Positions 13,614 through 44,683 of a stretch of DNA of 64,000 nt are shown here, piece after piece. How positions within the stretch are numbered: the first letter of the stretch is position 1; each line of letters opens with the position of its first letter. The translations under genes and the position numbers were made by a program. This stretch comes from an uncultured Clostridia bacterium. GTDB lineage: Bacteria > Bacillota > Clostridia > TANB77 > CAG-508. Below the pieces are notes generated by a model. The model searched no databases and was not told the DNA's origin. It was given only the letters and a program-made list of their open reading frames with translations. The stretch lies in NCBI GenBank assembly GCA_944387555.1, contig CALXFH010000001.1:82849-146848 (forward strand), in the 5' to 3' direction.

Positions 13614-14076
13614 TTATATTCTTCCTTTCTTAGTTTCAACAAATGTTCCACAGGCTTATATCTCTTGTATCCGTTATGGCTGTAATGTTCCCAAAATTTT
13701 TAATTCCGTGTGAAACAGAAATCATATTTCTATATGTTAATTATTATATTGTTTACCTATAAGTTCTACGTTATAATTTTTATGTATATTTCTGTTATTG
13801 CTTAAATCTTCCTTTTTTCATATAATTGATAAAATAGGACAAACTCTAATGTTTATATAAACTTATGTTGTTTTTGATTATGTTACTAGTGTTCGCTTTT
13901 TGTATAATTATTTTATAAATCTATTTATTCTTTTTTAAGTTCTAAAAACACAACTTGTCCTTATATATCTTTATGCCTTATTTCTTTTCAAAATCGTTCT
14001 TGCTTAATTTTTGTTCTTTTATTGTGAAATTAGTCGTCTAAAATATAAAAGCGTCTTATTTTTGATTTTCGTGTGT

Positions 14077-15448
14077 TTATTTTCCTAAACAAAATTTAGA
14101 AAAAATTTCATCAATAATATCATCAGTTACAACTTCACCTGTAATATTTCCTAAATCCTCTAAAATATCTTTAATAAATATTGCAATAATATCTAAGGGC
14201 ATCTTTTGTTCTAAAGTTTCTCTTGCTTTTTTTACACTCTCTATTGCTTTATCTATTAAATTTTTATGTCTTATATTCGTAATTACAACTTCTTGGTCTA
14301 AATTAATCTCATTTAAATTAAATAATCTGCTAATTTCATCATAAATATCTTCAATTCCTGTTTTGTTTAATGCAGAAATTTTTATTATAGAATTGCTTAC
14401 TTTTCTTAGTCTTTCATCATTTTCATCTATTTTTTGGTCTAAATCATTTTTATTTAGTATAATTATTGTTTTCTTATCTTTTATTAAATCTAATATTTCT
14501 AAATCTTCTTTTGTTAGTTCTTCAGATGCATCAAATATAGCAATTACAAGATCTGCTTCTTTTGTCATTTCTCTAGATTTTTCAATTCCTATCTTTTCTA
14601 CTTCATCTTTTGCATCTCTTATACCTGCTGTATCTACTAGTTTTAAAGGAATTCCATTTACTGTTACAAATTCTTCTATTGTATCTCTTGTTGTTCCTTC
14701 ATACTGTGTTACTATTGCCCTATCTTCTTTTAAAATTGCATTTAAAAGAGAGGATTTGCCAGCATTAGGTCTTCCTACTATTACTGTTTTTATACCTTCT
14801 TTTATTATTTTCCCATTATCAAAGCTTTTCTCTAGCTTTTCTAATTTACTTTGTACACTATCAAACATGTCTAAAATTTGTTTATTAGTTACATCAGGAG
14901 TATCATATTCTGGGTAATCTATTGTAACTTCTATATTTACCATTACATCCATTATTTCTTGTTTTATCTCTGCTATTTTTTTAGATAAGAAACCTTCTAA
15001 CTGCTTTATTCCTGTTTTTGCTTCTCTTTCTGACTTAGCATTAATAACATCTATTACAGACTCTGCTTGTAATAAATCTATTCTTCCATTTAAGAAAGCT
15101 CTTTTTGTGAATTCACCCGGTTCCGCAAGGTCTGCACCATTTTTTAAGCATAATTCTAGTATTTTTTTAACAACAATATTTCCTCCATGTGAATTTATTT
15201 CACACATATTCTCTGTTGTATAACTTTTAGGCGCTTTAAAATATGATACTAATACCTCATCTACAATATTACCATTTTCAACAATATTTCCGTATTTCAT
15301 TGTATAACCTTTTATTTCTTCTATTGGCTTTTTGTTCTTTGGAACAAATATTTTATCTAAAACATTAAAGCAATTTTCTCCACTCATTCTTATTATTCCA
15401 ATTCCCCCAATTCCGAGGAGCCGTAGAGATTGATGCTATTGTACTCAT
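14077..15448 (-). CDS. mnmE: tRNA modification GTPase MnmE (TrmE). The ORF-track CDS spans 14077..15387; the conserved N-terminus (MSTIASISTAP...) is encoded upstream in another frame, which implies a +1 frameshift near 15413
   Basis: G-domain GRPNAGKSS; C-terminal CLGK. The upstream 27-codon ORF with a strong SD (GGAGG) encodes MSTIASISTAP, which resembles the canonical MnmE start. A shifted frame gives GIGGIGIIRMSGENC, joining to the annotated start. Confidence 0.85.
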
Positions 15449-18329: not shown

Positions 18330-18560
18330 AAGATAAAGTTTTCCACAGTTTTTTAGACACTTATCCACAATTTTAAAATTTTTTCCACAATCTTATTGAC
18401 TTCTTATACTTAAATTTGTTATTATGTGTAAAGTAAAAAAATAAGTGAGTTTTTTATTGATATTACTTGAATTTTTGTTCGTACAAATTCCTAGATTTTT
18501 TACAAAAACATTACAAAGTTATCAACAGTTGTGGATAACTTTGTGGATAACTTTTTAGAA
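18330..18560. promoter_or_regulatory. oriC DnaA-box cluster upstream of dnaA
   Basis: TTATCCACA at 18361; TTTTCCACA at ~18339 and ~18381; TTATCAACA at ~18519; TGTGGATAA at 18531 and 18542. Confidence 0.8.
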
Positions 18561-20019: not shown

Positions 20020-20200
20020 GAATACATTCGTTATCCACATGGTACTGTTGAAAACCTGTGTATAAACTGTGTATATCTCAGTTTTACACAATTGAAATTT
20101 TAAACTGTGGATAATTAATTAAGTTATCCACCAAGTTATCAACATCGATTTTGTTAGGGATATCAGTTATCAACATAGTTTTCCACAGTTTCCACAGGAC
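20020..20200. promoter_or_regulatory. DnaA-box cluster and AT-rich region between dnaA and dnaN (second half of a bipartite oriC)
   Basis: TTATCCACA at ~20025; TGTGGATAA at ~20105; TTATCCACC at ~20123; TTATCAACA at ~20134 and ~20166; TTTTCCACA at ~20179. Confidence 0.75.
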
Positions 20201-20263
20201 CTAATACTATTACTACTAATAATTATTAAATTATTTATAAAATATATAAAGGAGGAAGTTAAA

Positions 20264-21379
20264 ATGAAAATTGTATGTTACAAAGACAAACTTATTAAAG
20301 CATTAAATTCCGTAGTAAAAGGTGTAGCTTCTAAAACTACAATGCCTATACTAGAAGGAATACTTATTCAAACTAATGATAATGAAATAAAATTAACTAC
20401 TTATGATTTAGAAATTGGAATAGAGTATGTAATGGATTGTGAAGTACAAGAACAAGGAAGTACAGTTGTAAATGCTATAATGTTTAGTGAAATTATTAGA
20501 AAATTGCCAGATACAGAAATTTATATTTCTGTAAATGAAAATAATTTATTAGAAATAGAATGTGAAGGTTCTTTATATAAATTAGCAACTATGAATCCAG
20601 ATGAATTTCCAGAACTTCCAAAAATAGAAGTTGAAAATTCAATTGAAGTAGAACAAAATACTTTAAAAAATATGATTAGAAGAACAATCTTTGCAGTAAG
20701 TACTGAAGAAAGTAGACCAATTTTTACAGGATGCTTATTTGAAATTGAAAATAATAAATTAAATGTTGTTGCAGTTGACGGTTTTAGATTAGCTTTAAGA
20801 AGTATTTATTTAAATAAACAAACTAATGATTTTAAAGCAGTTATACCAGGAAAAACTTTAAATGAAGTTAACAAAATAATTTCAGATTCTTTTGAACCAG
20901 TTAAAATAGGTGTTGCTAAAAACCAAGCATTATTTGAAATGGATAATTGTAAAGTTGTTACAAGAATTCTTGATGGAGAGTTCTTAAATTATAAAAATGT
21001 TATTCCAAGTAATTGGGAAACAAGAATGAAAGTTAATAAAAATAGTTTACAAAATAGTTTTGAAAGAATTAGTTTAATTTCAGCATCAAGTGTTGAAAAA
21101 GAGAAGAAATATCCAGTTAAAGTTCAAGTTGATATAGGAAAAGTTGTTATTTCTTGTACTAACCAAACAGGAGATGCTAAAGAAGAATTATATGTTTCAA
21201 CAGAAGGTAAGAATTTAGAAGCAGGTTTTAATCCAAAATATTTCTTAGATAGTTTAAAAGCAATTGATGATGAGGAAGTATATGTTGAATTTGGTAGCAG
21301 CATTTCACCTTGCTTAATAAAACCTATTGATAATAACGATTATACATATATGATTTTACCAATTAGATTAAAAGAATAA
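20264..21379 (+). CDS. dnaN: DNA polymerase III beta sliding clamp
   Basis: 371 aa with a three-domain beta-clamp pattern; strong RBS AAGGAGGAAG. Confidence 0.95.
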   Translation: MKIVCYKDKLIKALNSVVKGVASKTTMPILEGILIQTNDNEIKLTTYDLEIGIEYVMDCEVQEQGSTVVNAIMFSEIIRKLPDTEIYISVNENNLLEIECEGSLYKLATMNPDEFPELPKIEVENSIEVEQNTLKNMIRRTIFAVSTEESRPIFTGCLFEIENNKLNVVAVDGFRLALRSIYLNKQTNDFKAVIPGKTLNEVNKIISDSFEPVKIGVAKNQALFEMDNCKVVTRILDGEFLNYKNVIPSNWETRMKVNKNSLQNSFERISLISASSVEKEKKYPVKVQVDIGKVVISCTNQTGDAKEELYVSTEGKNLEAGFNPKYFLDSLKAIDDEEVYVEFGSSISPCLIKPIDNNDYTYMILPIRLKE

Positions 21380-21429
21380 AATTAATAGATGATAAAAGAC
21401 TAGGGAAGAGGTAGTTTTAACAAACTATC

Positions 21430-21890
21430 TCTTTTTAGTTATCCACAATTAACTAACAAACTGTGGATAACTTCTGTTTATAAAATGCATAGAAAAAACG
21501 AGTAAAAAATAGGAAAAAATAGATAAAAAAAGATAATCATATATTTTTGAAAGAATATCAAAATCTTGGATACCTGTGGATAACTTCGCTTAAAAATAAT
21601 TCAAAAAAAATAGAATAAATTAGAAAAAAATTAAAAAAAATAGAAAACGAGAGAAAAAACGAGATAATGATATATGTTGATAACTATAAAAATGAAAAAA
21701 TTAGAAAAAAATAGAAAAAAAAAGGATAAATTAGAAAACAAGAGATAATCATATGAAAATGAGTATGTGGAAAAGCTGTGGAAAATGAAAAACGAAGAAA
21801 ACAAGAGAATAAATTAGTAAAAAATCGAAAAAAATAGAAAATGAGAGATAATGACATAAAAATAAACTGTGGATAACTAAATAATGTTAG
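21430..21890. promoter_or_regulatory. Third DnaA-box cluster, organised as four tandem repeat units (GAGATAATSATAT ... DnaA box), immediately downstream of dnaN
   Basis: Inverted pair TTATCCACA (~21441) / TGTGGATAA (~21465); then units ending in tgtggataacttcgc (~21576), tgttgataactat (~21676), tgtggaaaagctgtggaaaa (~21766) and ctgtggataactaa (~21872). Each unit is preceded by aaaaatagaaaa-gagagataatSAtat. Confidence 0.7.
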
Positions 21891-21899
21891 CACTTAAAA

Positions 21900-24400
21900 A
21901 ATTATTTTTATATTTTTAGGAAACAGAAGAATAAAAAAGAATAAAAAAGAAAAAAATAGAATAAATTAGAAAATAAGAGAAAAACATAGGAAAATAAGAA
22001 TATTTAAAAATTAGGTTAAATAATAAATAAAATTAATTATAAAAAAATTAGAAAAAAATAGATAAAAAAAGAATAAGCTAGAAAATAAGAGAAAAACATA
22101 TGAAAATAGGAATATTAAAAAAATGGGTAAGATAATAAATTAAATTAATTATGAAAAAATTAGAAAAAAATAGATAAAAAAAGAATAAGCTAGAAAATAA
22201 GAGAAAAAAATATGAAAACAAGAATATTTAAAAAATAATAAATGAAATTAATCACAAAAAAATTAACGAAAATCAAAAATAAGCCGATTTATTTTTTAAA
22301 TAATATAAATATTAATTCTAAAATAATAAAAAAATTAGAAAAAAATAGAATAAATTAGAAAAAAGGAGGAAAGTATATAAAAATAGGGATATTTAAAAAC
22401 TATAAAAAATAATAAATAAATTTAATTATAAAAAATTATTAATGAAAATCAAAAATAAGCTGATTTATTTTTTTATAAATTAAAAAATAATGAAAAAAAT
22501 AGATAAAAAAAGAATAAATTAGAAAATAAAAGAAAACTATATAAAAATAAAGATATTTAAACAAATAAAAATAAAAAAATAATTGACTAACGAAAATCTA
22601 GTAGAAGCCTTTTTAGTATTTTTATTAATATAATTTTATAGAAAAATAAAAAATATTAATGTTTTTTAGAATAGAAAAATCAATAAAAGACAGTATTTTA
22701 AATGGATTAGGGGATTTTTGCAAATAAAAAAATAAAAATAACAAAACGCGAAAATCAAAAATAAGGCTTTTTATTAATATTATTTTTAAAAATATAGTAA
22801 AAAATAAATAAATAAAAATTATTTAATTAATTAAAAATATTTTTTATTTAAAAAGATAACTAAAAGTAAAAAATACAATTAATTATAAAAAATAAAATAA
22901 ATTAAAACAATTATAAAAAAATTAATAAAAAATATTTAATAAATAAATTAATAAAATTTTATAAAAATAAAATATTAATAATAAATAATAAATAATAAAT
23001 AGATAAAGAATAAATTATTTAATTAGAAAAAATATATTAAATAAAAAATAATTAATTAAATAATAAATAAAATAAATATATATATAATTAAATTAATTTA
23101 ATTTTTTTATAAAATAATTCTAAAAAAATAATTAATTAAAATAAATATTTAATTGTTTAATTAATTATAAAACAAAAAATTCATATATATACAAAAAGTT
23201 TTAGAAGTTATTATTATTTTAAATTAAAATAATATTTAAGAAAAAAAGACAATAGATTAAAAGAAAAATAAAAAATGTTAATAAATTTGATAAAAAATAA
23301 TTGGTATAATACTAGGGATTTAAAGTGTTAGTCAATTTTAATAAACTAAAGAAAAAAGTTTACATATAACGTGTTATAAATATTATTTTCATATAATTGA
23401 TCTTGTTTTAAGGAATCTTTTTAAAGGTAAAAATAAAAGTTACTTTATTTTTTATAATAAAAAATAATATAAAAAAATTAAAAATTAATTTGAAAATATT
23501 TTTTTAAAATAAAATAAATAAATAAAAAATTATTTATTAAATAAAAACTAAATAAACAAATAAAAAAATTATAAAAAGAAAATAAAAATAAATAAATTTA
23601 AATAAATAAAAAATAATATAAAAAAATATTTAAATAATTAAAGTAAAAAATAGTTATTTAAATAATAAATACTTTATTTTAAAATTAAATTAATGAAATA
23701 AAAAAATTAAAATAAGTATAAATTTTTTTTGCATATATTATTATATTTTTTAAAATTTAAATAAAAACTTATAAAGATTAAATAAACTAAAATAATAATA
23801 AAAAATAGGTATAAAATTTATAAAAACAATATAAAGATTACTAGGCATTAAAAGGTTTGCTTGATTAATTATGATTTATAAAAAACAATAAAAATAGTTT
23901 ACATATAACTAGAAATTTGAATTATTCTATTTAATTAATAATGCTGTTTGTTAGTATATTGTTAAAAGAAAAATTAAAATGAATATTATTTTTTTATTAA
24001 GAAATTTTAAAATATAAAAAAGAAATTGTAAAAAAAATTTTTAAATATTTTAATTTTAAATAAATAAAAAAATAATAATAAATTGAATTAATTATTTTAA
24101 TAAATAAAAATAATAATTAATTATAAAAAAATAATGATAAAAATAATTATTAATTAAAAAATAAAAAGAATTAAAAAATATAAAAAATTAATTATAAAAA
24201 AATAATAAAATAAATTAATTAAAATAATGATTTAGTAAAAACAAATAAATAAAATTAAATTAATAAAACAATAGAAACGACTTATGAAAATCGAAAATAA
24301 GCCGTTTTATTTTTTTCGATATATAAATTATAGAAAAAATGAAAAAACGATTGATTAATTTTAAAAAATAAAATATAATAAGTAATAAAGTTGTGCACAA
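21900..24400. repeat. Extremely AT-rich non-coding desert. It contains a degenerate 120-180-bp tandem repeat family (21.9-22.8 kb), five copies of GAAAATCAAAAATAAGCYG(A)TTTATTTTTT, and two copies of the TAGGCATTAAAAGG...GTTTACATATAA core
   Basis: Direct repeats at 22038-22110 and 22156-22230; the GAAAATC... motif at ~22262, ~22438, ~22589, ~22745 and ~24281; no ORF over 70 aa and none with normal composition. Confidence 0.75.
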
Positions 24401-24412
24401 GTGGAGATTAAT

Positions 24413-25489
24413 ATGTGGATAAGTAAAGTAAAAATAAAGAATTTTAGGAATTATGAAGAACAAGAAATTGAATTAAAACCAAATGTAAATGTTTTTTATG
24501 GAGAAAATGCTCAAGGAAAAACTAATATAATAGAAGCAATTTTTTTATGTAGTATGGGAAAATCATTTAGAGCAAAAAAAGATAAAGAAATGATTAAATT
24601 AGATTCTCAAAATGCTATTGTAGAAATTGAATATCAAAAGACAGATAGAGATGGAAAAATAAAGATACAATTAGGTAATAAAAAAATTGTATTTGTAAAT
24701 GGTATAAAAATAAAAAAGTTAAGTGAACTTTTAGGTAATCTTAATGTAGTAATGTTTAATCCAGATGATATAAATATTTTAAAAGGTGGACCTCAAAATA
24801 GAAGAAGATTTTTAGATATTATGATAAGCCAATTGAAACCAAATTACATGCACACATTAAGTTTATATTCAAAAACAATAGAACAGAGAAATAATTATTT
24901 AAGACAGATAAAAGAAGAACAAAAATCAGAAAGTATGTTAGACATTTGGGATGAAGAATTATCTAGTTATGCAGTTATTATTAGTAAATATAGAAAAGAA
25001 TTTATGGAAAAGATAAAAAATAAAATTAAAAAGATTCATTCTGAAATTACTGATGATAAAGAAGATATAGAAATAGAATATATAACAGAATGCGATGATA
25101 AAGAAAAGTACTTAAGTTTATTAAAGCAAAGAAGAAAACTAGATATTATAAAGGGATATACAACAAAGGGTATACATAGAGATGATTTTATGATATATAT
25201 AAATAAGAAACAATTAAATGTTTATGGCTCACAGGGACAACATAGAACAGCAATGTTATCTTTAAAATTAGCTGAGGTAAAGATTGTAGAAGATGAAATA
25301 GGAGAGAAACCAATATTATTATTAGATGATTTTATGTCAGAGCTAGACCAAAAAAGAAGAAATCATTTTTTAGAAAAAATAAATGATACACAAGTAATAA
25401 TTACTTGTACTGATAAAATAGATATTGAAAATAAAAATATTTTAATATATAATGTAAAAGACGGAAAAGTCTATAGAGGAGGAATATAA
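24413..25489 (+). CDS. recF: DNA replication and repair protein RecF. The likely start is ATG 24413 (MWISKVKIKNF); the ORF track begins at 24401
   Basis: Walker A GENAQGKTN; the RecF/SMC-like signature is visible; GGAG lies 6 nt upstream of ATG 24413. Confidence 0.9.
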   Translation: MWISKVKIKNFRNYEEQEIELKPNVNVFYGENAQGKTNIIEAIFLCSMGKSFRAKKDKEMIKLDSQNAIVEIEYQKTDRDGKIKIQLGNKKIVFVNGIKIKKLSELLGNLNVVMFNPDDINILKGGPQNRRRFLDIMISQLKPNYMHTLSLYSKTIEQRNNYLRQIKEEQKSESMLDIWDEELSSYAVIISKYRKEFMEKIKNKIKKIHSEITDDKEDIEIEYITECDDKEKYLSLLKQRRKLDIIKGYTTKGIHRDDFMIYINKKQLNVYGSQGQHRTAMLSLKLAEVKIVEDEIGEKPILLLDDFMSELDQKRRNHFLEKINDTQVIITCTDKIDIENKNILIYNVKDGKVYRGGI

Positions 25490-27418: not shown

Positions 27419-27443
27419 TTTGAAAAATAAAATAAAAAATATT

Positions 27444-27474
27444 AAACGGTAGATAAAACAAATATCTACCGTTT
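27444..27474. terminator. gyrB intrinsic terminator
   Basis: aaacggtagat-aaaacaaa-tatctaccgttt, a perfect 11-bp stem followed by a T-rich tract. Confidence 0.7.
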
Positions 27475-27574
27475 ATCTATAAAGCCAATAATAATCTCTA
27501 CTAAAACTAATATATCTAATATTAAAACCTAATATATATTACTATATAAATAAGCCTTGATACCACATATATTA

Positions 27575-27910
27575 ATCATTCGCTCGACTATTAATACACC
27601 ATAAGTAACTATATTCGTCCTAAAGCTTAGGACTACTAATAACTACTAAAAAATATTAGATATAAGAATAATCTTAGCTCGAATTTATTACCTATCATTT
27701 GACCATATATTTTAAATAATAAAAAATATATTATAGATATAAAATATTAAATATAAATTAATAATAAATATAGCCTACAAACAAATAATAAATTCTTATC
27801 GCCGACATATTATAATCCATAAAAATGAACCATAATACATCTTTGCTCGAATATTAATAAACGAAATATCATCTATTAATACTCTTCGCTCAACCATTAT
27901 TGACCTTATA
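27575..27910. repeat. Iteron-like array of five direct repeats, TCTT(N)GCTCGA(N2)ATTA(W)TA
   Basis: Copies at ~27578 (cattcgctcgactattaataca), ~27672 (tcttagctcgaatttattacct), ~27794 (tcttatcgccgacatattataatcc), ~27838 (tctttgctcgaatattaataaacg) and ~27884 (tcttcgctcaaccattattgacc). Confidence 0.6.
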
Positions 27911-27967
27911 ATAGTATTATGTTCAAAATTAAAAATTTTATTCAAAAGAATAAAAAATTATAAAAAA

Positions 27968-28029
27968 AATCATTTGTCGAATTTTGTCGATGAAAAGTTC
28001 TTGACAAAAGTGAAAAAAGATTGTAAAAT
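27968..28029 (+). promoter_or_regulatory. Two Spo0A-box-like TGTCGAA/TGTCGAT motifs followed by a consensus sigma-A-type promoter (TTGACA-17-TAAAAT)
   Basis: catttgtcgaattttgtcgatg; TTGACA 28001-28006, 17-nt spacer, TAAAAT 28024-28029. Confidence 0.5.
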
Positions 28030-28039
28030 GCTTTTTAAA

Positions 28040-28643
28040 TCGGAGGTGATAAAAATAAAACAATTAACAGTTCAAGAATGGTTACCTATAGAAAAAATTT
28101 ATAATGATCGGATTTGTTAAATTAAAAAATAATAAAATAATTAAAATTTTAAAAGTTAATCCAATTAATTATAATCTAAAGTCAGATTTAGAAAAAGAGT
28201 CTATTTTAAATTCTTATAAGATTTTTTTAAAAACTTGTAATTTTAATATCCAAATTTTAATTCAAAGTAGTAAAGAAGATTTAACTCATCATATTAAAAA
28301 TATCCAAAAAAATATTTCTAAAAAAGAAAATAAATATTTAGAGAAAATTGCAGAAAATTATATTAATTATATTCAACAAATTAATTTAACAAGAAAATCA
28401 TCATCTAAAGATTTTTATATTATTATATCAGATACAATTAATAAAAAAATGAATATTTTTGAATCAGAAGAAATAATTAAAAATGATTTAAAAGATAAAT
28501 ATTTTAAAGTCAAAGAATGTTTAGCTCGTTCCGGAAATTTAGTTTCTGAATTATCTAATTCAAAAGAAGTTGAAGATTTATTTTTCTCTTTATTAAATAC
28601 CAGAAAAAGTTTAAATAATAAATTAATTAAAATAAATAAATAA
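28040..28643 (+). pseudogene. Frameshifted, TM-less paralog of the VirB4 N-terminal-like domain protein
   Basis: The upstream frame encodes ..KQLTVQEWLPIEKIYNDRIC*. ORF 28104..28643 continues in another frame with MIGFVKLKNNKIIKILKVNPINYNLKS..NIQILIQS, matching 2081..3352 (..RRYVMAIECAGINYDL..PIQIYVQT). Confidence 0.5.
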
Positions 28644-28644
28644 A

Positions 28645-28860
28645 AATAATTAATTAAAAAATAATTAATAAAAAAATAATTAATTAAAAAATAATTAATT
28701 AAAAAATAATTAATTAAAAAATAATTAATTAAAAAATAATTAATTTAAAATAAATTAATTTAAAATTAATTAATTAAAAATAAATTAATAAAAAAATAAT
28801 TAATTAAAAATAATTAATAAAAAAATAAATTAATTTAAAATAATTAATAAAAAATTAATG
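28645..28860. repeat. Microsatellite, ~13 units of a 16-bp repeat, AAAATAATTAATTAAA
   Basis: Read directly from the sequence. Confidence 0.9.
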
Positions 28861-29214
28861 ATTAAAAAAATAAAAAAATAAAAATATTCATTAAGAAAAT
28901 TAAAAGATTTTAAAATAGAAATGAGTTACAAAATAAAATAAAAATTATAAGTAGTTGGTTAAAATGAAAAGATAAAATACAAAGATAAAAAATCCAAATA
29001 AAAGTAAAAAAATATTATAAAGAAATAGGTTAAAAATGTTAGGCGTTTAAAAGAAAGCGGTAATGAATAAAATTAATTACCATTCAAGCAGAATTAGAAA
29101 AATAAGTTTACATATAAGAAAATAATAAATAGAAAAATGTTGTTATATTTTTAGGTTTTATTAAAATAAAGTTTAAAGAATTTAAAATATATTTATATTT
29201 AATTTATATAAATA

Positions 29215-29530
29215 TTAAATAAAAAATAAATTAATTTAAAAAATAATTAATTTAAAAAACAATTAATTAAAAAATAATTAATTTAAAAAACAATTAATTA
29301 AAAAATAATTAATTAAAAAATAATTAATTAAAAAATAATTAATTTAAAAAACAATTAATTAAAAAATAATTAATTAAAAATAAATCAATTTAAAAAATAA
29401 TTAATTAAAAAGTAATTAATTAAAAAATAATTAATTAAAAATAAATTAATTTAAAAAATAATTAATTAAAAAGTAATTAATTAAAAAATAATTGATTAAA
29501 AATAAATTAATTAAAAAATAATTAATAAAA
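29215..29530. repeat. Microsatellite, ~19 units of a 16-17-bp repeat, AAAA(A/C)AATTAATT(A/T)AA; a shorter related block lies at 29985-30120
   Basis: Read directly from the sequence. Confidence 0.9.
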
Positions 29531-30165
29531 TAAATAATTAATTACAAAATAATTATTTAAATAAAAATAATTTTTTTATAAAAATAAAAAAAATCTAATT
29601 AAAGAAAAATAATCAATTAAATAATTGTATATAAAGAAAAAATTAAAAATAAAAAGGAGGTTGCATAAATTTTGAAAAGTTTAAAAGAAATTATAAAAGA
29701 AACTTTAAAAAATATAAAAAAGGAATTAAAAGAATTACTAAAAAGGCTTAGGCATTAAAAGAAAAAGAAGAATTGATAAAATGAAAGACAAATTTAAAGT
29801 GAGTAGCTACAAAGGTTTACATATATAAAAATAAAATTCTTAATGCTATTTAAATAAATAAGTTTGTTGTTTCGATTTAGTATTTCAAAAAAATAAAATT
29901 TCATAAAATTAAAAAGAAAAAATAAAATATTTAATTTTAAATATTAATAAAAAATAATCAATTAGAAATAAATTAATTAAAGATAATTAACAAAAAAATA
30001 ATAAAATAAAAAATAAAATAAATTAAAAAATAAATTAATTAAAAAACAAATTAATTAAAAAATAAATTAATTAAAAAAATTAATTAAATAAAAATAATAA
30101 AATAAAAAAAATTAATTAACAAAAATGAATAATTAATTTTATTAAATAGAAAAAGGAGGAGAAAA

Positions 30166-32034
30166 TTGTTAAAAGAAAAAATAGAAAATATATTTAATAA
30201 AAATAAAAAAGAAATTAATGATAATTTTTTTGAAGGGACTATATATAAAAAAGATGAAATATCACCAGCATATATAGATATGCAAAATCCTAAATATTTA
30301 GAAATAGATAATTTATATTATGGAGGATTAATAGTAGTAGATTATTATAGAGAACAGACAGATATCATTTTAAAAACATTAATAGAAACTAATATTAATA
30401 TGAATATTTCTGTTTTTTATGAAAAACAAGATCCGTTTAAAACTATAAAAGATTTAACATATCATATAGGTAATGTAGGAGTAGAATTAAAAGAAAGTAA
30501 TCAAAACAGAGAGGATATAGATATAGCAGCTTTTACATACAATGATGCTAAATATATAAGAAAAGAAATACAAGTAAATAATGAAGATATTTATTATTTA
30601 TATATTTATATTAGTATATATGCAGAGAATGTAAAAGAATTAGAATACTATTTAAATAAAATAGAAGGTATTGCACAAAGCAAAGGCATGCAAACAAGAA
30701 GAGCAAATTTTAGACAAGAAGAATTATTTTTATCTTGCTTACCTATAATGGAAAATAATAATACAATAAAAGATGCAGCGAGAAGAAACGTCTTAACTTC
30801 TGGTTTACTTGCAACATACCCATTTATATCTTCTACTATATTTGACCAAGATGGAATCTTTATTGGTACTAATATATATAATAATTCTTTAGTTTTTATA
30901 GACAGATATAATAATCAAAAATATAAAAATGCTAATATATGTATATTTGGAACTAGTGGAGCTGGTAAATCATTTTATACTAAATTATTAATATTAAGAT
31001 ATAAACTATTAGGGATTAGTCAATATATAATAGACCCAGAAAGAGAGTATGACCATTTATGTGAAAGTTTAAAAGGAACACAAATTAAAATAGGACCTAA
31101 TTCAGATACATATATTAATGTTTTGGAAATAAGAAAGGAAAGTTTGGAAGAAGGAGAAAGCGGATATTTAGCTACTAAAATAGGAAAGCTTATAGGTTTC
31201 TTTAATCTAATATTTGGGGAATTAAATGAAGAAGAGAAGGCTTTAATAGAAGAGAAACTAATAGATACATATAAAATGAAGAATATTAATTTTGATGATA
31301 AAAGCTTATATAAAGAAATAAGAACAAATAAAAAGATAAAAAAGGTATTTAAAGATCCACAAGATATGCCAATACTAGAAGATATATATAATATATTAGG
31401 AAAAGATGAGAGAACTAAAAAATTTCAAATAAAACTTATTCCTTTTGTTAAGGGGTCTATGAAATTCTTTAATAATATATCGAATATAAAATTAGATAAT
31501 GAATTAATAGTTGCAGATATATATGATTTAGGAGAAGAGAATTTAAAATATGGTATGTATTTATTTACAGAAATATTTTGGGACAAGATTAAAGAAAACA
31601 GAAATGAAAAGAAAGCAATATACTTAGATGAAATATGGAGATTAATAGGTGTAACATCTAATAAAGAAGTTGCAAGCTTTATATATAAAATATTTAAGAC
31701 TATTAGAAAATATGGTGGTAGTGGAGTAGCAATAACACAAGATATATCAGATATATTTAGTTTGGATAATGGTACATATGGAAAAAGTATTTTAAATAAT
31801 TCTAGTATTAAAACATTTTTTGCATTAGAAGAGGAAAATATAAAAATACTTTCAGATTTTACTAATTTATCAGAAAAAGAAAAAGTAGAAATTAAATCTT
31901 TAAAAAGGGGAGAGTGTTTAATGTTTGTTGGTGATGAACATATATTAACTAAAATAGAATGTTCTGAATTAGAACAAGAAATATTAGAGGGAGGAAAGAA
32001 TAAGAATAATGAAAAAAATAATATTAGCAATTGA
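30166..32034 (+). CDS. VirB4-like ATPase paralog with an N/K-rich biased composition
   Basis: Walker A CIFGTSGAGKSFYT; Walker B KKAIYLDEIWRLIG (DE-x-W); the N-terminal region parallels 181..2205; RBS AAAGGAGGAG. Confidence 0.65.
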   Translation: MLKEKIENIFNKNKKEINDNFFEGTIYKKDEISPAYIDMQNPKYLEIDNLYYGGLIVVDYYREQTDIILKTLIETNINMNISVFYEKQDPFKTIKDLTYHIGNVGVELKESNQNREDIDIAAFTYNDAKYIRKEIQVNNEDIYYLYIYISIYAENVKELEYYLNKIEGIAQSKGMQTRRANFRQEELFLSCLPIMENNNTIKDAARRNVLTSGLLATYPFISSTIFDQDGIFIGTNIYNNSLVFIDRYNNQKYKNANICIFGTSGAGKSFYTKLLILRYKLLGISQYIIDPEREYDHLCESLKGTQIKIGPNSDTYINVLEIRKESLEEGESGYLATKIGKLIGFFNLIFGELNEEEKALIEEKLIDTYKMKNINFDDKSLYKEIRTNKKIKKVFKDPQDMPILEDIYNILGKDERTKKFQIKLIPFVKGSMKFFNNISNIKLDNELIVADIYDLGEENLKYGMYLFTEIFWDKIKENRNEKKAIYLDEIWRLIGVTSNKEVASFIYKIFKTIRKYGGSGVAITQDISDIFSLDNGTYGKSILNNSSIKTFFALEEENIKILSDFTNLSEKEKVEIKSLKRGECLMFVGDEHILTKIECSELEQEILEGGKNKNNEKNNISN

Positions 32035-33289
32035 AAATAAAAAGTTAGAAGATAAATTAAAAGAAAATAATAATATAAAAATAATATGTAACAATTTACA
32101 ATATAGAGAAGCTATTTTAGAAATATTAGATAAAAATAAAAATATAGATTTTATTTTAATTAATGAAAATTTACCAGGAATAATTAGTATAGAAGAATTA
32201 GTAAAAAAAATAAAAATAATTAATAATAAAATTAATATAATTATTTTTTTAGAAAAAGATGATATTAATAAAATAAATAGATTAAAAAAATTAAATATAA
32301 ATAATATTTATTTAAATAAAAAAATAAATATAAATAAAATAATTAATTTAATTCTTAAAAATAATAAATTTAATAATAATTATAATAAAAATAATTTATT
32401 AAATTATAAAATAAAAAAAGAAAAAATAAATAATAATAAATTAATTAAAATAAATAATTTTAAAAATAATAAATTTAATAAATTAAAAATTATTTTAAAT
32501 AAAATTAAATTAAATAAAAATAAATTAAACAATAATATTCATTTAAATAATAAAAATAAAAAAGAAAATAAATTAATTACTATAATGGGAAAAAGAAAAA
32601 CAGGAAAAAGTACAATAATAAATTTATTATTAATTTATTTATTACAAAAAAATAAAAAAATATTATTAATTAATTTAAATAAACAATTAGAAAATAATTA
32701 TTTAATTTTATTCGGAAAAAAATATTATAAAATTAAAAATAATTATTTTAATAAATATAATTTAATTAATAATAAATTAAATAAAAAAAATATTTTTTTA
32801 AAATCTGAAATTAAAATAAATAATAATTTATTCTTTTTAAATAATTTCCAAAAAATAATTCAACAAAATAATTATAATAATATTTTAGAATATTTTACTA
32901 AATATTATATTAAGAAATATGATTATGTTTTAGTAGACATCGGAGATAGTGCAAATAGAAGAATAAAACAAAAAATAGTAAAAATAAGTGATAAAAACAT
33001 AATGGTTATGACCAATGATTTACTAGGCATTAAAGAGGTAGAGAGATTAAGTCTGGAGTCAAACTTAAAAGAAGATAACAAAGAAAATAGTTTACATATA
33101 ATACTTAATAAATATTATTTTAATTCAATTAGCAACAGCATTTTTAAAAATTTGGTTAAAAGAAAAATAAAATTTAGTACAATTTTTTATAATAAAAAAT
33201 TTATAAATCTTTCAAATAAAATTTTAAAAAATAGAAAATTTAATTTTAATTTATTTTTTAAAAATAAATTAAAAAATATTTTAAAATAA
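32009..33289 (+). CDS. Pseudo-receiver domain fused to a ParA/MinD-family ATPase (TadZ/CpaE-like architecture); extreme N/K/I low complexity
   Basis: N-terminal receiver-like fold in which the phospho-acceptor position is N (FILINENLPG). P-loop ITIMGKRKTGKSTIINLL; Walker B-like DYVLVDIGD. The 3' end overlaps a satellite core copy (33033-33102). Confidence 0.45.
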   Translation: MKKIILAIENKKLEDKLKENNNIKIICNNLQYREAILEILDKNKNIDFILINENLPGIISIEELVKKIKIINNKINIIIFLEKDDINKINRLKKLNINNIYLNKKININKIINLILKNNKFNNNYNKNNLLNYKIKKEKINNNKLIKINNFKNNKFNKLKIILNKIKLNKNKLNNNIHLNNKNKKENKLITIMGKRKTGKSTIINLLLIYLLQKNKKILLINLNKQLENNYLILFGKKYYKIKNNYFNKYNLINNKLNKKNIFLKSEIKINNNLFFLNNFQKIIQQNNYNNILEYFTKYYIKKYDYVLVDIGDSANRRIKQKIVKISDKNIMVMTNDLLGIKEVERLSLESNLKEDNKENSLHIILNKYYFNSISNSIFKNLVKRKIKFSTIFYNKKFINLSNKILKNRKFNFNLFFKNKLKNILK

Positions 33290-36200
33290 AATTGATTAAA
33301 TAAAAAAATAAATAAAATTAATTAAATTAATTAATAAAAATAAAATAATTATTTTTAATAAAATAAAAAATTAATTAAAAAATAATTATTAATTAAAAAT
33401 AAAAAATAATTAATTTAATAAAATATTAAAATAAATATAAAAAATATTTTTTAAATATTTAAATAATTTAATTAATTAAATATTTAATAAAAATAAAAAT
33501 AATTTTTTATAATAAATATTAATTTTTATTTTTTAATAATTTAGGAATAAATTATTTTAAAAATTTTAAATTATAAAATTATATTTTTAAAAATAAAAAA
33601 ATTATATAAAAATATTTTAAAAAACTTATAAGAATAAAAATAGTTAATAAAATTATAGAAAAAATAATCAATAAAATGTTAGGCATTAAAAGGATTAGAG
33701 AGTTATTAATAAAATATAGAAAAACAAGAAAAAGGTTTACATATAATAATTAATAAAAACAAATCAGATATGGAGATTAGATATATTTTTAATAATTTTA
33801 CTGGTAAAAAATTAAAATTTACTATGATTTAATATTATTAAAAAATAATATTAAATAAAAAATAATTAAACAAATTAAAATATTAATTTAAAAATATTTA
33901 TAGAATAAATTAAAAAAATATTTTAATAAAAAATAAATAAAATTAATTAATAAAAATTATTCAATAAAATAAAAAATAAAATTAATCATTACTAATTAAT
34001 AAAAAATAATTAATTAATAATAAAAAAATAAATAATTAAATAAATAAAATAATGAAATAAATGAAAATAATTTAATTAAATAAAAAATAAATATTAAAAT
34101 AATTAAATAATTAATTTATTTAAAATAATTATTAAAAATAAAAAATTAAATTATAAAAAAATAAAATAAATTTTTTCTAATAATTTTATTAATAAAATAG
34201 AAATTTAAAATATAAAAAAATGTTTTACCAGATATAAATGTTTTTAATTAAAATAAAAGTTCACAAAAAAGACAATAGCATAAAAGAATAATAAAAAATA
34301 TTTATGAAATTGGTAAAAAATAATTAATAAAAAACTAGGCATTAAAAGAATTGAACGATTATTAATAAGCCACTGAATAATAAACAAAAAAGTTTACATA
34401 TAACATATTATAAATATTATTTTTCTTGGATTATTAATCAGTGTTTTCAAGAATTTTCTTAAATACTAAAATTAAATTCATTTTATTTTTATAAAAATAA
34501 ATTAAAATAAATAATATAAAAAATTAATTTTATAAAATTAATAAAAAATATTTAATTTAAAAATAAATAAAATTAATTAATAAAAAAATTATTTAATTAA
34601 ATTAAATAATAATAAAAAATAATAATTTAAAAATAAATAAATTAATTAAATAAATAAAAAAATATTTTAATAATTAAAATATTAATTAATTTAAATTAAT
34701 AAAAAACAATTATTAATTAAAAAATAAAAATAGTTAATTAAATAAAAAATTAAAAAATAAATATAAAAAATATTTAAATAATTAATTAATATAAAATAAT
34801 AAAAATTAATTTTAAAAAATATATTTTAAATTATAAACTAAAGAACCAAAAATTATAGAGGAAAAATTATAGTTACTTTTCTGTTAATCTTAAAAAGCAT
34901 ACATAAGGATAAAAAATATAAAATAGAAAGCAAAATATAGTAAAAATAATTAATGAATTACTAGGCATAAAAGGGATAGACAAGCTAGATTTTAAATAAA
35001 TAAAATAGAAGAAAATAGTTTACATATTTTTGTTAAATTAAATTTGATTTTATCTAATTATTTAAAATAATTTAAAAAATTGTTGTTATAAAAAAGAAGT
35101 TTATTATAATTTTTTATCAAATATTAAAATAGAAAATAGAAATTATAAAAAATTAATTTAAAATATTTTTTAAAAATAAAAAATATTTAATAAATAAAAT
35201 TAATTAATAAAAAGTTATTTAATAAAATAAAAAATAAATAAAAATAATAAAATAATTATTTAAAAACAAATAATTTAAAATTTAATTAAATATAAAATAA
35301 TTATTAATTAAAAATAAAATTAATTTAAAAAATATTAAAATAAATATAAAAAAGATTTTTTTAAATATTTATATAATTTAATTAATTATTTATAAAAATA
35401 AAAATAATTTTTTATAACAAATATAATTTTTGATTTTGAATAATAAGAAGAAATTATATTAAAAAAAATAATATAAAAGGATTTTATAATGACTATCATA
35501 ATAAAATAGTTAATAAAAGCATAAAAAATAATTAATAAAATGTTAGGCATTAAAAGGATTGCACGATTAATAACAGAGAAAGAAAAAACAACAAAAATAG
35601 TTTACATATAACGAATGATTTAAATTATTTTTATTTAATAAAAGAGTCTGATTTAAAAAAATTATTAAAACAAAGATTAAGTTTATTATTATTTTTTATA
35701 ATAAAAAATTTAAAAATATAAAAAAGAAAATATTAAAAATTAATTTTAAAACATTTTTTAAAATTAAATAAAAAATATGTTAATAAAAAAATAAATAAAA
35801 TTAGTTAATAAAAAATTTATTTAATTAAATTAAAAAAATAATAAAAAATAATTAAATAATTAAAAATATAAATAATAAAAAAATAATAATTAAAAAATAA
35901 TTTTAATTAAATAAAAAAATATTTAATTAATTAAAATAAAAAATAAATATTTAAAATATTAATTTAAAATAATTTTATTATAAAAAATAAAATAAAATTA
36001 AAAAAATTATTTTTATAGCAATAATATTTTTGATAATAAAAAATAAAAAAGGTAGTATTGAAATTTTTCTAATTTAAAGAATAGTTTAAATTAATAAAAA
36101 AATATAATAAAAACAAAATAATTTGTGAAAATGTTAAAAAAATAAATTTTAAAAAGTTAGGCATTAAAGGGATTGCAAGATTAATAATAGATTAGAAGAA

Positions 36201-36850: not shown

Positions 36851-37066
36851 TACAAAAATTATAAACTAAAAAGAATATAAAAAATTATTTATTATTTTAT
36901 AAAAAGAAAATTATAAAATTAATTTATTTAATTTTATAAATAAATAATTATTTTAATTAATAATTAGAAAAATAAATTATTTTATTTTAAATAAAATAAT
37001 TAAAATTAAAATAATTAAAAATAAAAAATAATTAAATAAAAATAGAAAAAGAAAGGATGAAAAAAT

Positions 37067-37792: not shown

Positions 37793-37814
37793 AAAAGAAA
37801 GGATATTATAAATT

Positions 37815-38783: not shown

Positions 38784-38828
38784 AAATATAATGTCTATTA
38801 AAAATAAAAAGCAAGGGGTTATATAATT

Positions 38829-39134: not shown

Positions 39135-39273
39135 TTTTGTTAATATTTAAAACAATTATACATATATTTATATTATCATAAATTATTAATTAATTTAAAA
39201 AAATTTAAGTTATATGAAAAACCAGAGTCCGTTAGGATTCTGGTTTTTATAATAATATATATTTTATATAGAT

Positions 39274-39314
39274 GTGTCCCCAAATGCACATTTTTGAGCA
39301 AAAGGAAACGTCCC
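39274..39314 (-). repeat. GGGAC-element copy A (reverse orientation), immediately 3' of the XRE gene stop
   Basis: Reverse complement reads gggacgtttccttttgctcaaaaatgtgcatttggggacac; compare copies at 44684 and 47707. Confidence 0.7.
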
Positions 39315-44666: not shown

Positions 44667-44683
44667 AATAATTGGGGACGTTT

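Follow-up and report, generated by a model that had tools for sequence, protein, structure and literature searches.

DnaA boxes and tandem units between dnaN and recF

The genes dnaN and recF are separated by 3033 bp in the window, i.e. in the whole stretch of 64,000 nucleotides that was analyzed. This long spacer is not an assembly artefact, because it was recovered in five independent metagenome assemblies of the species, with 0–10 mismatches and without indels. The box array and an AT-only tract within the spacer are identical in these five assemblies, and no copy-number variation was observed. The following features were annotated in the dnaN-proximal and central parts of the spacer:

21403–21438, forward strand: intrinsic dnaN terminator with a 15-bp hairpin and a subsequent U-run; DnaA box b1 lies immediately 3' of it
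21439–21470, no strand assigned: convergent DnaA-box pair b1 and b2, TTATCCACA-N14-TGTGGATAA, abutting the dnaN terminator
21439–21447: box b1, TTATCCACA
21462–21470: box b2, TGTGGATAA, separated from b1 by a 14-nt spacer
21497–21600, forward strand: unit u1, A-tract decamers including the invariant AAAAAATAGATAAAAAAAGAT at 21514–21534, and b3 as TGTGGATAACTT at 21575–21586
21575: box b3, TGTGGATAA, orientation as the other unit boxes
21609–21699, forward strand: unit u2, decamers followed by GAGATAATgatatATGTTGATAA; contains b4
21675–21683: box b4, TGTTGATAA, one mismatch, orientation as the other unit boxes
21700–21802, forward strand: unit u3, decamers and the double box b5/b6
21766–21774 and 21777–21785: boxes b5 and b6, TGTGGAAAA twice with a 2-bp gap, orientation as the other unit boxes
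21803–21900, forward strand: unit u4, decamers and b7
21868–21876: box b7, TGTGGATAA, orientation as the other unit boxes
21935–22600, forward strand: box-less units u5–u9, with periods of 112, 112, 165 and 164 nt
22800–24250, no strand assigned: AT-only low-complexity tract, 7% GC, without boxes and without 10-bp phasing

RNA folding of the dnaN terminator hairpin yielded a free energy of -15.1 kcal/mol (z = -4.1). The 438 bp directly downstream (21439–21876) contain seven DnaA boxes, four of which are perfect and none of which has more than one mismatch. The motif TTWTNCACA has six matches in 521 bp of the array (11.5 per kb), compared to 0.15 per kb in the remaining 60 kb, so that the box density is about 75-fold that of the remaining window. 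When the array region was simulated with a first-order Markov model, the mean was 0.13 matches, and none of 20,000 simulations reached six. The complete window was also scanned with a PWM, the training set of which consisted solely of boxes from the rpmH-dnaA and dnaA-dnaN regions of 80 relatives; the array boxes were not used for training. Six of the 18 matches in the 64 kb are located at 21439–21868, and these have the top scores of the window (20.6–22.0; 21.7 for b3), while no match was found within the AT-only tracts. The array boxes and the dnaA-flanking boxes have a common extended consensus, AAGTTATCCACA, and the motif and its flanks are identical. The initial annotation had proposed a DnaA-box array 3' of dnaN. 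The enrichment and the top PWM scores verify that it is real, and its box density is far higher than that of random AT-rich DNA.

The boxes b3–b7 are all co-oriented and belong to four tandem units of 91–113 bp (u1–u4), each of which is composed of phased A-tract decamers and a box, or a double box in the case of u3. Closely spaced boxes are found only in the pair (14 nt) and in b5/b6 (2 nt); the others are 91–113 bp apart. The 3'-end of u2 is similar to the RBS and start of recF, GGAGATTAATATGTGGATAA. Repeat families and an alignment revealed that a 5'-part of about 60 nt, which comprises the decamers, is common to u1–u9 (21497–22600), whereas boxes are present in u1–u4 only and are replaced by AAGAATATTTAAAAA..AATAATAAAT..AATTAT in u5–u9. 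TRF detected a 91-nt period over 21604–21841 and a 112-nt period over 21938–22237 (2.7 copies, 89% match), and the distal units are colinear with the relative L001 up to about 22.28 kb. The AA periodicity peaks at 10.25 bp in the units, and no such peak is found in other AT tracts. The decamer, of the AAAAAATAGA type, is about tenfold enriched and strand-specific, with 387 copies on the forward strand versus 5 on the reverse strand.

Several details of the units had to be corrected. Gaps of 9–22 nt had been given between 'gataatSAtat' and the box, but the actual gaps are 32, 1, 11 and 10 nt, and the periods listed above replace the 120–180 bp that had been claimed for the distal units. The unit family had been traced to about 22.8 kb; box-less copies do continue beyond the array, but recognizable units end at about 22.6 kb, and 22.6–22.8 kb contains only degenerate copies of a different, promoter-like module.

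The Rfam scan of the whole window at gathering thresholds gave no match in 21.4–24.4 kb, and the ORF scan of the spacer found only low-complexity ORFs of up to 69 aa, mostly on the T-rich strand, and no yaaA-like gene. The terminator consensus scan retrieved none beyond the dnaN hairpin, which was itself missed by the rules of the scan. A consensus scan for promoters found 30 promoter-like matches in the region, versus 38.6 expected from shuffles. Unit-internal promoters of the form TAGAAA-N16-GATAAT cannot be claimed.

A blastn comparison of the whole spacer with the long spacers of relatives revealed clear colinearity for the proximal 0.7–0.9 kb, and the remainder was low-complexity noise. 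The AT-only tract is lineage-specific filler. It is absent from most relatives, the dnaN-recF spacers of which are 44–3302 bp long, mostly 200–900 bp. In 26 of 80 related MAGs the contig breaks in the repeat and AT-rich region; therefore, origin annotation and growth-rate (peak-to-trough) estimates are affected for these taxa.

Conservation in related species and the recF leader

The box pair is present in 65 of 80 related species, with a fixed 14-nt spacer and at most three mismatches in total. The spacer sequence is free; the arms are conserved and vary only where the consensus TTWTNCACA is degenerate. In most relatives, a hairpin equivalent to the dnaN terminator precedes the pair, and the position of the pair is constant relative to this terminator, not to recF. 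Many relatives contain 1–5 further boxes of the same orientation beyond the pair. The complete spacers of relatives (n = 51) have 4.1 boxes per kb versus 0.11 per kb in the background, and at least two boxes are present in 35 of them. Together, the tandem units and the widely retained pair bear out the earlier proposal of a third DnaA-box cluster beside the usual two.

Eight orthologous arrays were compared column by column. Non-A columns within boxes were invariant in 70% of cases, versus 27% for non-box columns (Fisher p = 8e-7). Boxes b1, b2 and b3 are invariant in all eight arrays, and 4-fold degenerate sites of these species are 56–87% identical. The b4 position reads TGTGGATAA in five of the eight orthologues, and the lowest conservation is that of b7, a box that L009 and L010 have lost. 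Conservation thus declines from b1–b3 to b7 and is strongest on the dnaN/oriC side, even when recF is 1.7–3.3 kb away. Taken as a whole, the array region is about as diverged as 4-fold degenerate sites. Across the relatives, the spacings between boxes cluster at 87–92, 96–102, 108–114 and 121–123 bp, i.e. in steps of 10–11 bp; a Rayleigh test gave a broad maximum (R = 0.62 at about 11 bp), with many of the spacings being orthologous and therefore non-independent.

Judged from these alignments, the array is under selection, because the pair is found in most of the species and the box columns are invariant far more often than their flanks. By the same kind of comparison, it is dispensable within the wider group, because the pair is missing in about 15 of the 80 relatives (including some with complete spacers of 44–250 bp), 5 of the 51 complete spacers contain no box, and the array is absent altogether from L116, a more distant relative. 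Box number varies from 0 to 7 between species.

Of 120 matches from a metagenome scan for the exact N14 pair, about 55 are located 30–460 bp upstream of dnaA in diverse taxa. A special role of the N14 geometry cannot be claimed, because many of these matches hold a third box in the 'spacer' and N14 was the only spacing scanned.

A second pair and a promoter-like module, which the initial annotation had not listed, lie at the recF end of the spacer, and duplicates of the module are found within the repeat region:

22257–22310, forward strand: duplicate of the promoter-like module, GAAAATCAAAAATAAGCCG..TTTTTT, repeat family D9
22433–22486 and 22740–22797: further copies of the module; degenerate copy at 22585–22640
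24275–24335, forward strand: promoter-like module upstream of recF, CG..GAAAATCGAAAATAAGCCG, a 17-nt gap and a TATAAA/TATAAT-like hexamer
24391–24422, no strand assigned: second convergent N14 pair, TTGTGCACA (TTATACACA in relatives), spacer, then TGTGGATAA

The spacer of the second pair contains the RBS GGAG (24403–24406), and TGTGGATAA overlaps the recF ATG at 24413 (Met-Trp-Ile), a start that is also called by gene callers in other assemblies. The TTATACACA-N14-TGTGGATAA pair surrounds the RBS and overlaps the ATG throughout the clade. Only in the low-GC clade does RecF have Trp as its second residue, and the TGG codon creates the box; 25 other recF starts from outside this clade encode MYI, MII, MVI and similar.

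The promoter-like module is present in 43 of the 51 complete spacers, usually in one copy, 117–165 nt upstream of the recF ATG. It has consensus resemblance only, with a weak -35 hexamer (AAGNCG). The copies of family D9 are 78–81% identical to the copy at 24275–24328. RNAalifold found no consensus RNA structure in 36 copies of the module, which rules out a hairpin terminator or structured RNA. The array and the module are 2.4 kb apart in the window, and the range for the window species together with its nearest relatives is 1.2–2.7 kb. In L024 and L031, 20 nt separate the last array box from the module downstream of it. In L116, the pair at the recF translation initiation region and the module are present without an array, and the recF-linked parts are therefore older. 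The unit decamers are the same as those of the recF leader in relatives, and therefore the array is tied to the recF-gyrB control region. Where the spacer is shortest (44–80 bp), dnaN and recF directly flank a box pair.

The unwinding site and the possible role of the array

The canonical origin clusters are also present in the window:

18339–18550, no strand assigned: DnaA-box cluster 1, upstream of dnaA, including TTATCAACA-g-TTGTGGATAACTT-TGTGGATAACTT
20167–20250, forward strand: canonical unwinding module in the dnaA-dnaN spacer, with tandem boxes TTATCAACA, TTTTCCACA and TTTCCACAG

The true ATG of dnaA is located at 18573. In addition to the tandem boxes, the unwinding module contains the GC cluster ggacc, the DnaA-trio run CTAATACTATTACTACTAATA at 20201–20221 and a 28-bp stretch with 0% GC, and it is the least stable short stretch (-0.84 kcal per step). 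Tandem boxes, DnaA-trios and an AT-rich DUE are present upstream of dnaN in 79 of 80 relatives. The array is as thermodynamically stable as coding DNA (-1.10 kcal per step), and no DnaA-trio run was found adjoining the boxes in 21430–21900. The initial annotation had considered an extended origin with the AT-only tract as its unwinding element. This reading fails, because the tract is lineage-specific filler that is missing from relatives with spacers down to 44 bp, and the unwinding module is located at 20167–20250. The array itself was likewise rejected as an unwinding site, in view of its coding-like stability, its lack of trios and the module elsewhere. To judge from the sequence features, the array is not where the DNA opens, and its role is probably regulatory.

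We give about even odds to the view that it is an accessory DnaA-binding array, i.e. a third origin-region cluster that acts as a sink or insulator in a clade of low-GC gut Clostridia. The high-affinity boxes would be occupied by DnaA. Predicted curvature of the A-tract spacers and the spacing steps of 10–11 bp would keep neighboring boxes about ten helical turns from each other and on a similar face of the helix, and bending could bring the bound DnaA molecules into mutual contact. DnaA would thereby be assembled into a compact body 1.2 kb rightward of the true unwinding site. Being close to the origin, such an array would be replicated within seconds of initiation and could serve as a sink or reservoir for DnaA; it could also form a protein barrier that separates the dnaA-dnaN operon from recF-gyrB. 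The units may have arisen by tandem duplication of the DnaA-boxed recF leader and translation initiation region. The distal units without boxes, the extra copies of the promoter-like module and the AT-only tract would then be decayed, lineage-specific by-products. For B. subtilis, extra-origin DnaA-box clusters have been reported to bind DnaA stably, to be clustered near oriC and to modulate initiation (PMC2533591; PMC5295017). Cooperative occupancy at a spacing of about 100 bp would, however, rest on the assumption of curvature and looping, and the quantized spacing could be explained trivially by indels of the 10-nt decamer.

A more elaborate version of the accessory array appears rather improbable to us, namely that the units of about 100 bp are a pre-bent scaffold that nucleates a wrapped multi-DnaA particle beside the origin, a structurally new type of initiator sink or timer that is coupled to the box at the recF start codon. 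The phased A-tract decamers (about 10.25 bp) would curve the DNA and present the boxes together, the strand-specific TAG-bearing decamers might guide the growth of filaments from the anchor boxes, either as weak DnaA sites or as sites of a second protein, and the initiator level could also set the output of recF-gyrB (gyrase) via the start-codon box. Such a sink or timer would be placed in bacteria without datA/Hda pathways.

Several other explanations were weighed against the accessory array. The whole dnaN-recF spacer could be a DnaA-controlled regulatory region for recF-gyrB, a possibility that we take seriously but consider less probable than the accessory array. DnaA at the start-codon pair and at upstream boxes would repress or act as a roadblock, possibly by looping the curved DNA around the promoter, and the array would be an upstream operator set that was moved away from the promoter by junk expansion in the lineage of the window. 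DnaA is a known repressor and roadblock (PMC11317965; PMC2533591), and this explanation can accommodate the clade-specific Trp codon and start-codon pair, the widespread module close to the recF ATG, the recF-like decamers and 3'-end of u2, the arrangement in L116 and the box pairs of the shortest spacers. Array boxes that adjoin the module in several relatives would fit a transcriptional role equally well. However, b1–b3 are invariant although more than a kilobase separates the array from the module in the window species and its nearest relatives, box conservation decays towards recF rather than towards dnaN, the pair keeps its position to the dnaN terminator, and the promoter remains a consensus resemblance with a weak -35 hexamer in a region where promoter-like matches do not exceed those in shuffles. 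It is unlikely that oriC is tripartite and requires the array as its third part, which would bridge to the dnaA-dnaN cluster, loop out dnaN and thereby enable efficient unwinding at 20.2 kb, as a mirror image of the upstream cluster that loops out dnaA in B. subtilis and H. pylori. The three clusters are about 1.6 kb apart and roughly symmetric about the trio-bearing middle cluster, convergent pairs at 23–24 bp occur in all three, and bipartite looping origins are established in Firmicutes (PMC7561715; PMC5295017), but the pair-less species and the array-less L116 all retain the unwinding module, and the box number varies between species.

We regard it as very improbable that the array is a neutral by-product of slippage and unequal crossing-over that expanded an AT-rich spacer, with boxes that are passively copied, functionless relics of the recF start. 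The loss of boxes from distal units, the wide range of spacer lengths, the different multiplication of modules and units in L054, L077, L072 and L003, and the overall divergence of the region would all be expected in this case. It is contradicted by the selective conservation of boxes against a near-neutral background, by the invariance of b1–b3 in eight species with diverged 4-fold sites, by the retention of a pair with a free spacer sequence, and by the constant copy number within the species. Least probable of all, and hardly tenable, is that the palindrome is a nucleic-acid hairpin (a second or bidirectional terminator, or a cruciform) or that a protein other than DnaA recognizes the motifs. 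The pair does fold as an 11-bp hairpin directly after the terminator (-13.7 kcal/mol, z = -6.5), and position 3 changes jointly on both arms in 16 loci. However, no other position co-varies, and position 3 corresponds to the W of the DnaA box, which is known to be degenerate; ten loci are mixed, unpaired changes occur at positions 1 and 9, and positions 4, 6, 7 and 8 never vary, which indicates conservation of sequence and not of pairing. The single unit boxes have no partner arm, and the identity with the boxes around dnaA includes the flanks. Because the variation tracks the DnaA-box consensus, the hairpin reading of the pair was rejected.

Little is known about how initiation is controlled in bacteria other than E. 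coli and B. subtilis. The origins of Firmicutes and clostridia have been described as bipartite, dnaA being flanked by one cluster on each side, and the array adds a third cluster beyond dnaN. The clade comprises abundant, uncultured gut Clostridia and has an unusual layout, with single boxes about ten helical turns apart on phased A-tracts and, in the same clade, a DnaA-box pair wrapped around the start of recF. If DnaA binds as predicted, the array would offer a natural test case for cooperative binding, namely whether curvature of the DNA can take the place of box density. It would also be a candidate device for titration or insulation in organisms from which no DnaA-inactivation loci are known, and possibly part of a direct link from the initiator level to recF-gyrB expression.

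Comparison with known systems

Similar to datA and DARS of E. coli, the array is a non-coding DnaA-box cluster near the origin. These loci tune initiator availability after initiation rather than unwinding DNA: datA by IHF-dependent hydrolysis of DnaA-ATP, and DARS by nucleotide exchange on ADP-DnaA at a specific three-box core. Their cofactors and box geometry are not evident at the array, and the likeness is limited to that of a non-coding cluster near the origin; use of the datA/DARS pathways is not known from Firmicutes. Like plasmid iterons, the array has direct repeats with an initiator site near an origin, and its copy number varies between relatives. However, iterons are 17–22 bp sites about two helical turns apart that are bound by a plasmid-encoded Rep and lie beside the rep gene and the DUE, whereas the array has units of 91–113 bp, the chromosomal DnaA box, no adjoining rep gene and a DUE 1.2 kb away. 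The earlier label 'iteron-like' is thus a loose analogy only. Streptomyces D78 is also an extra DnaA-box cluster near oriC, proposed to delay initiation by titrating DnaA; it differs from the array in phylum, position relative to dnaN and repeat architecture.

DnaA operators and roadblocks, as in dnaA autoregulation and the block of RNA polymerase, resemble the window in having boxes at a terminator or gene junction and around the RBS and start codon. We know of no reported case of a DnaA box in the start and second codon of recF, or of an operator set spread over tandem units of about 100 bp. The 2-bp gap of b5/b6 matches the double-box geometry preferred by E. coli DnaA (PMC11317965).

The window contains both canonical clusters of the bipartite oriC of Firmicutes and Helicobacter (incAB/oriC1, and incC/oriC2 with DnaA-trios). 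The arrangement of boxes, trios and AT-rich DNA in the dnaA-dnaN spacer has been shown to unwind in B. subtilis and C. difficile, and this clostridial origin study describes two clusters only (PMC7561715). In contrast, the window has a third cluster beyond dnaN, which is built of tandem repeats, has no trios or adjacent DUE and contains 0–7 boxes in different species. A literature search found no paper that combined 'DnaA box', 'downstream of dnaN' and 'oriC'.

The DnaA-box clusters (DBCs) of B. subtilis are, like the array, intergenic clusters of consensus boxes outside the unwinding site that are conserved in relatives (Ishikawa 2007, PMC2533591; Okumura 2012, cited in PMC5295017). They are mostly located near oriC, bind DnaA stably and regulate the neighboring genes sda, ywlC and yydA, and together they restrain initiation. 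None of the eight sites lies between dnaN and recF (PMC2533591), and they contain 4–8 boxes in about 45–95 bp, whereas the array has single boxes about 100 bp apart on A-tract-phased units behind a palindromic pair. Stable DnaA binding in B. subtilis needs a mean inter-box distance of about 4–21 bp (Ishikawa 2007 Table 2, PMC2533591), and most boxes of the array are 91–113 bp apart. The array agrees with the DBCs in its box concentration far above background and in its conservation at the same locus in relatives.

DnaA boxes and repeat units 3' of dnaN

The window spans the origin region of the chromosome in a very AT-rich uncultured lineage of Clostridia, to which related records such as Clostridium sp. 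CAG:343, CAG:575 and 26_22 were found. The GC skew changes sign at 18-19 kb, and the genes are arranged as follows:

jag, yidC, rnpA and rpmH: minus strand
dnaA: plus strand, true ATG at 18573
dnaN: 20264-21379, plus strand
recF: plus strand, true ATG at 24413, not GTG at 24401
gyrB: plus strand, 3' of recF

The dnaN-recF spacer is 3033 bp long. An ORF scan revealed no credible ORF in it, and it had no Rfam match. In five independent assemblies of the same species the spacer differed by 0-10 mismatches and no indels; therefore, it is not an assembly artefact and shows no visible instability. Its AT-only tract was identical in five independent assemblies.

The initial annotation had placed DnaA boxes within a tandem repeat array immediately 3' of dnaN, and boxes were indeed found at these positions:

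21439 and 21462: convergent pair, TTATCCACA and TGTGGATAA, 14-nt spacer
21575: single box, same orientation as the following ones
21675: single box, TGTTGATAA
21766 and 21777: double box with a gap of 2 bp
21868: single box

The 521 bp 3' of dnaN contain six matches to TTWTNCACA (11.5/kb), compared with a background of 0.15/kb in the 60 kb of the window outside the origin region. Simulation with a first-order Markov model of the region yielded a mean of 0.13 matches, and at least six were obtained in 0 of 20,000 runs. A position weight matrix (PWM) for which only the dnaA-flanking boxes of 80 relatives served as the training set had 18 matches in the window: five upstream of dnaA, five between dnaA and dnaN, six at 21439-21868, one at the recF start, and one elsewhere. 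The array boxes had the top scores (20.6-22.0) and no match occurred in any AT-only tract of the window, showing that the box density is not that of random AT-rich sequence.

The tandem-repeat structure was recovered by TRF, a repeat-family search and an alignment of nine units. All nine units (u1-u9) share an A-rich 5' part of about 60 nt, which is followed by a DnaA box in u1-u4 and by none in u5-u9. Thus, the proposed unit motif with its box and the distal box-less units exist, but two dimensions had to be revised: the distances from 'gataatSAtat' to the box are 32, 1, 11 and 10 nt instead of 9-22 nt, and the distal periods are 112, 112, 165 and 164 nt instead of 120-180 bp.

Across species, the box-to-box distances clustered at 87-92, 96-102, 108-114 and 121-123 bp, with steps of 10-11 bp. 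AA dinucleotides in the units showed a periodicity peak at 10.25 bp (power 13 and 18 versus an expected value of about 1), and no such peak was found in the other AT-only tracts. In the spacers of the window and the 80 relatives, the decamer AAAA[AT]T[AC]GA occurred 387 times on the plus strand versus 5 times on the minus strand; its density was 6.3/kb versus 0.64 and 0.27/kb on the two strands of other DNA with at most 18% GC. It is almost exclusive to the dnaN-recF spacer and to one strand. Relative to each box, the conserved TAG of the decamer is on the strand and the side expected of DnaA-trios, with a period of 10 nt and not 3 nt. A-tracts that are phased with the helical repeat bend DNA. 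We infer that the array is bent, and that bending may allow an interaction between DnaA molecules whose boxes are separated by about 100 bp.

Conservation among related species

A DnaN-based scan yielded 80 related loci, one per species, with DnaN identities of 89-98%. The dnaN-recF spacers ranged from 44 to 3302 bp, but short spacers are over-represented among the complete ones because the repetitive, AT-rich spacer is a recurrent assembly breakpoint. In fact, 26 of the 80 related MAG contigs ended less than 1 kb 3' of dnaN, suggesting that short-read assemblies are frequently interrupted here.

The convergent pair is kept in 65 of the 80 species, just 3' of the dnaN terminator hairpin. Its spacer is fixed in length at 14 nt and free in sequence. 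Positions 4, 6, 7 and 8 of both arms did not vary at all, and the W of TTWTNCACA was the sole frequently variable position. This pattern is the signature of a DnaA box and not of a base-paired stem. Many species contain one to five further boxes in the TGTGGATAA orientation, and the box density was 4.1/kb in complete spacers versus 0.11/kb in 708 kb of flanking DNA.

In seven close relatives, orthologous boxes were found at +74, +187, +287, +378 and +480 from the dnaN stop codon. In the eight-way alignment, the first three boxes were invariant and conservation then fell towards the seventh. Of the non-A columns, 70% of those in boxes were invariant versus 27% of those elsewhere (Fisher p = 8e-7). 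For the same species pairs, identities were 0.56-0.87 at fourfold sites of dnaN versus 0.69-0.90 in the intergenic region; the intergenic divergence is thus similar to that at fourfold sites, and the boxes stand out from a roughly neutral background. The array is real and conserved, and it is probably functional.

Unwinding module and AT-only tracts

All parts of the unwinding arrangement that is known in B. subtilis and C. difficile are present in the dnaA-dnaN spacer of the window:

20167-20250: unwinding module of three tandem boxes, a GC cluster, the trio run CTAATACTATTACTACTAATA and then 28 bp of 0% GC

The trio run consists of 3'-GAT-type trios on the lower strand, the 28-bp stretch lies directly 5' of the dnaN RBS, and the arrangement is kept in 79 of the 80 relatives. 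DnaA-trios were not found in the array, and its nearest-neighbour stability of -1.10 kcal per step resembles that of coding DNA. The AT-only tract at 22.8-24.25 kb melts readily, but not more readily than other, unrelated AT-only tracts (28.6-30.1 and 32-37 kb), and it is missing from most relatives. Therefore, the initial suggestion of an extended origin with this tract as its unwinding element is not supported.

In a bacterial genome of about 1.5-2 Mb, multi-kb non-coding tracts with 6-10% GC, as found here at 22800-24250, 28650-30100 and 32100-37000, are highly unusual. Region 28613-29572 is a 15-bp satellite, AAATAATTAATTAAA, in about 63 copies, and a mechanical ORF inside an AT-only tract (32009-33289, 426 aa, no Pfam match) is probably spurious. 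The genes gyrB and gyrA are usually adjacent; here, about 18 kb (27419-45231) are inserted between them. An AT-only tract splits a VirB4/TraC-like conjugation ATPase into ORFs 28104-28643 and 30166-32034, and the insertion also carries a PD-(D/E)XK transposase (37815-38783) and a MutS domain I fragment (41637-42080). The insertion probably represents an integrative conjugative element that has decayed. A diversity-generating retroelement is suggested by a bAvd-like gene (42058-42468), a reverse transcriptase (42446-43462) and an Rfam RT-14 RNA (43631-43786, 106 bits); a target candidate lies at 39996-41375.

The recF leader, the role of the array and known systems

Further elements, which the initial annotation had not mentioned, were found at the recF start, upstream of it and in the repeat region:

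24275-24335: promoter-like module, CGaCGCaCG-ARAATCAAAAATAAG-NCG, 17-nt gap, TATAAT
24391-24422: convergent box pair, TTGTGCACA (TTATACACA in relatives), 14-nt spacer with RBS GGAG, then TGTGGATAA
22257, 22433 and 22740: duplicates of the promoter-like module inside the repeat region

The recF pair has the same N14 geometry as the pair 3' of dnaN, and its TGTGGATAA overlaps the start codon (ATG TGG ATA A). Trp at residue 2 of RecF occurs only in the low-GC clade; 25 other metagenome recF starts read MYI, MII, MVI, MTI and similar. Of the 51 complete spacers, 43 contain the promoter-like module, at a distance of 117-165 nt 5' of the recF ATG. Its invariant core is GAAAATCAAAAATAAG, TATAAT follows 17 nt after AAGNCG, and no consensus RNA structure was found for it. 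A further copy (14062-14085, minus strand) lies right after the stop codon of an mnmE-like ORF (14077-15387, minus strand) and upstream of an mnmG-like ORF. Different blocks of the spacer are multiplied in other lineages: one relative (L077, 9117-10760) has a tandem 410-bp unit with a box and the module (boxes at +347, +757 and +1167), and another (L054, 9117-10330) has four tandem copies of the module. The A-rich decamers of the units are identical to the recF leader of relatives, and the 3' end of u2, GAGATAATgatatATGTTGATAA, closely matches the RBS and start of recF. In a more distant relative (L116, DnaN 86% identical) the recF pair and the promoter-like module are present, and the array is absent. 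We infer that a DnaA-boxed recF leader gave rise to the array through tandem duplication; later decay and expansion would account for the units without boxes, the additional modules and the AT-only tract.

Concerning its role, we consider it about as likely as not that the array is an accessory site of DnaA binding with a regulatory function. It could act as an origin-proximal sink or reservoir of DnaA that would be duplicated almost immediately after initiation, and could also form a protein barrier at the dnaN terminator. A role on the origin and dnaN side is favoured mainly by the conservation, which is strongest at the dnaN-proximal boxes, even with recF 1.7-3.3 kb away. In the main rival reading, to which we assign a clearly smaller chance, DnaA would regulate recF-gyrB through the spacer, with the array providing the upstream operators. 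Arguments for it come from the recF pair and the W2 codon, from the promoter-like module and from the shortness of the spacer in some relatives. This control and an accessory array are not mutually exclusive.

A required third origin segment is unlikely, as the array is absent or variable in relatives that have the unwinding module. Even less probable is a neutral relic, because the boxes are selectively conserved, and least of all do we expect a hairpin or a non-DnaA site, against which the variation pattern of the pair speaks.

The origins of Firmicutes and clostridia are described as bipartite and as unwinding between dnaA and dnaN (PMC7561715; PMC5295017). In B. subtilis, DnaA binds stably to eight regions, none of which is located between dnaN and recF; all are dense clusters, with boxes about 4-21 bp apart on average (PMC2533591). 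For E. coli DnaA, tandem boxes with 2-3 bp between them are preferred sites, and the protein can also act as a roadblock to transcription (PMC11317965). We found no paper on a DnaA-box cluster 3' of dnaN in the literature. In a metagenome scan that took in the 14-nt spacing alone, the exact TTATCCACA-N14-TGTGGATAA pair lay for the most part upstream of dnaA, at a distance of 30-460 bp, in many unrelated bacteria with GC contents of 27-66%. At these sites the spacer often included a third box, at +11 or +12. The pair occurred 3' of dnaN only in the clade of the window. The pair abuts the dnaA start in three loci (L089, L096 and L116).

The array would not overturn current models, and its hosts are uncultured; it offers a clean in vitro testbed for curvature-assisted DnaA cooperativity and for DnaA control of recF-gyrB. 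It is a box cluster at a conserved locus, lacks the density of the B. subtilis clusters (mean inter-box distance about 4-21 bp), and is neither an unwinding module nor a set of iterons. It is thus best classified as a DnaA-box cluster with an unusual dispersed, repeat-built and A-tract-phased layout and a link to recF-gyrB.
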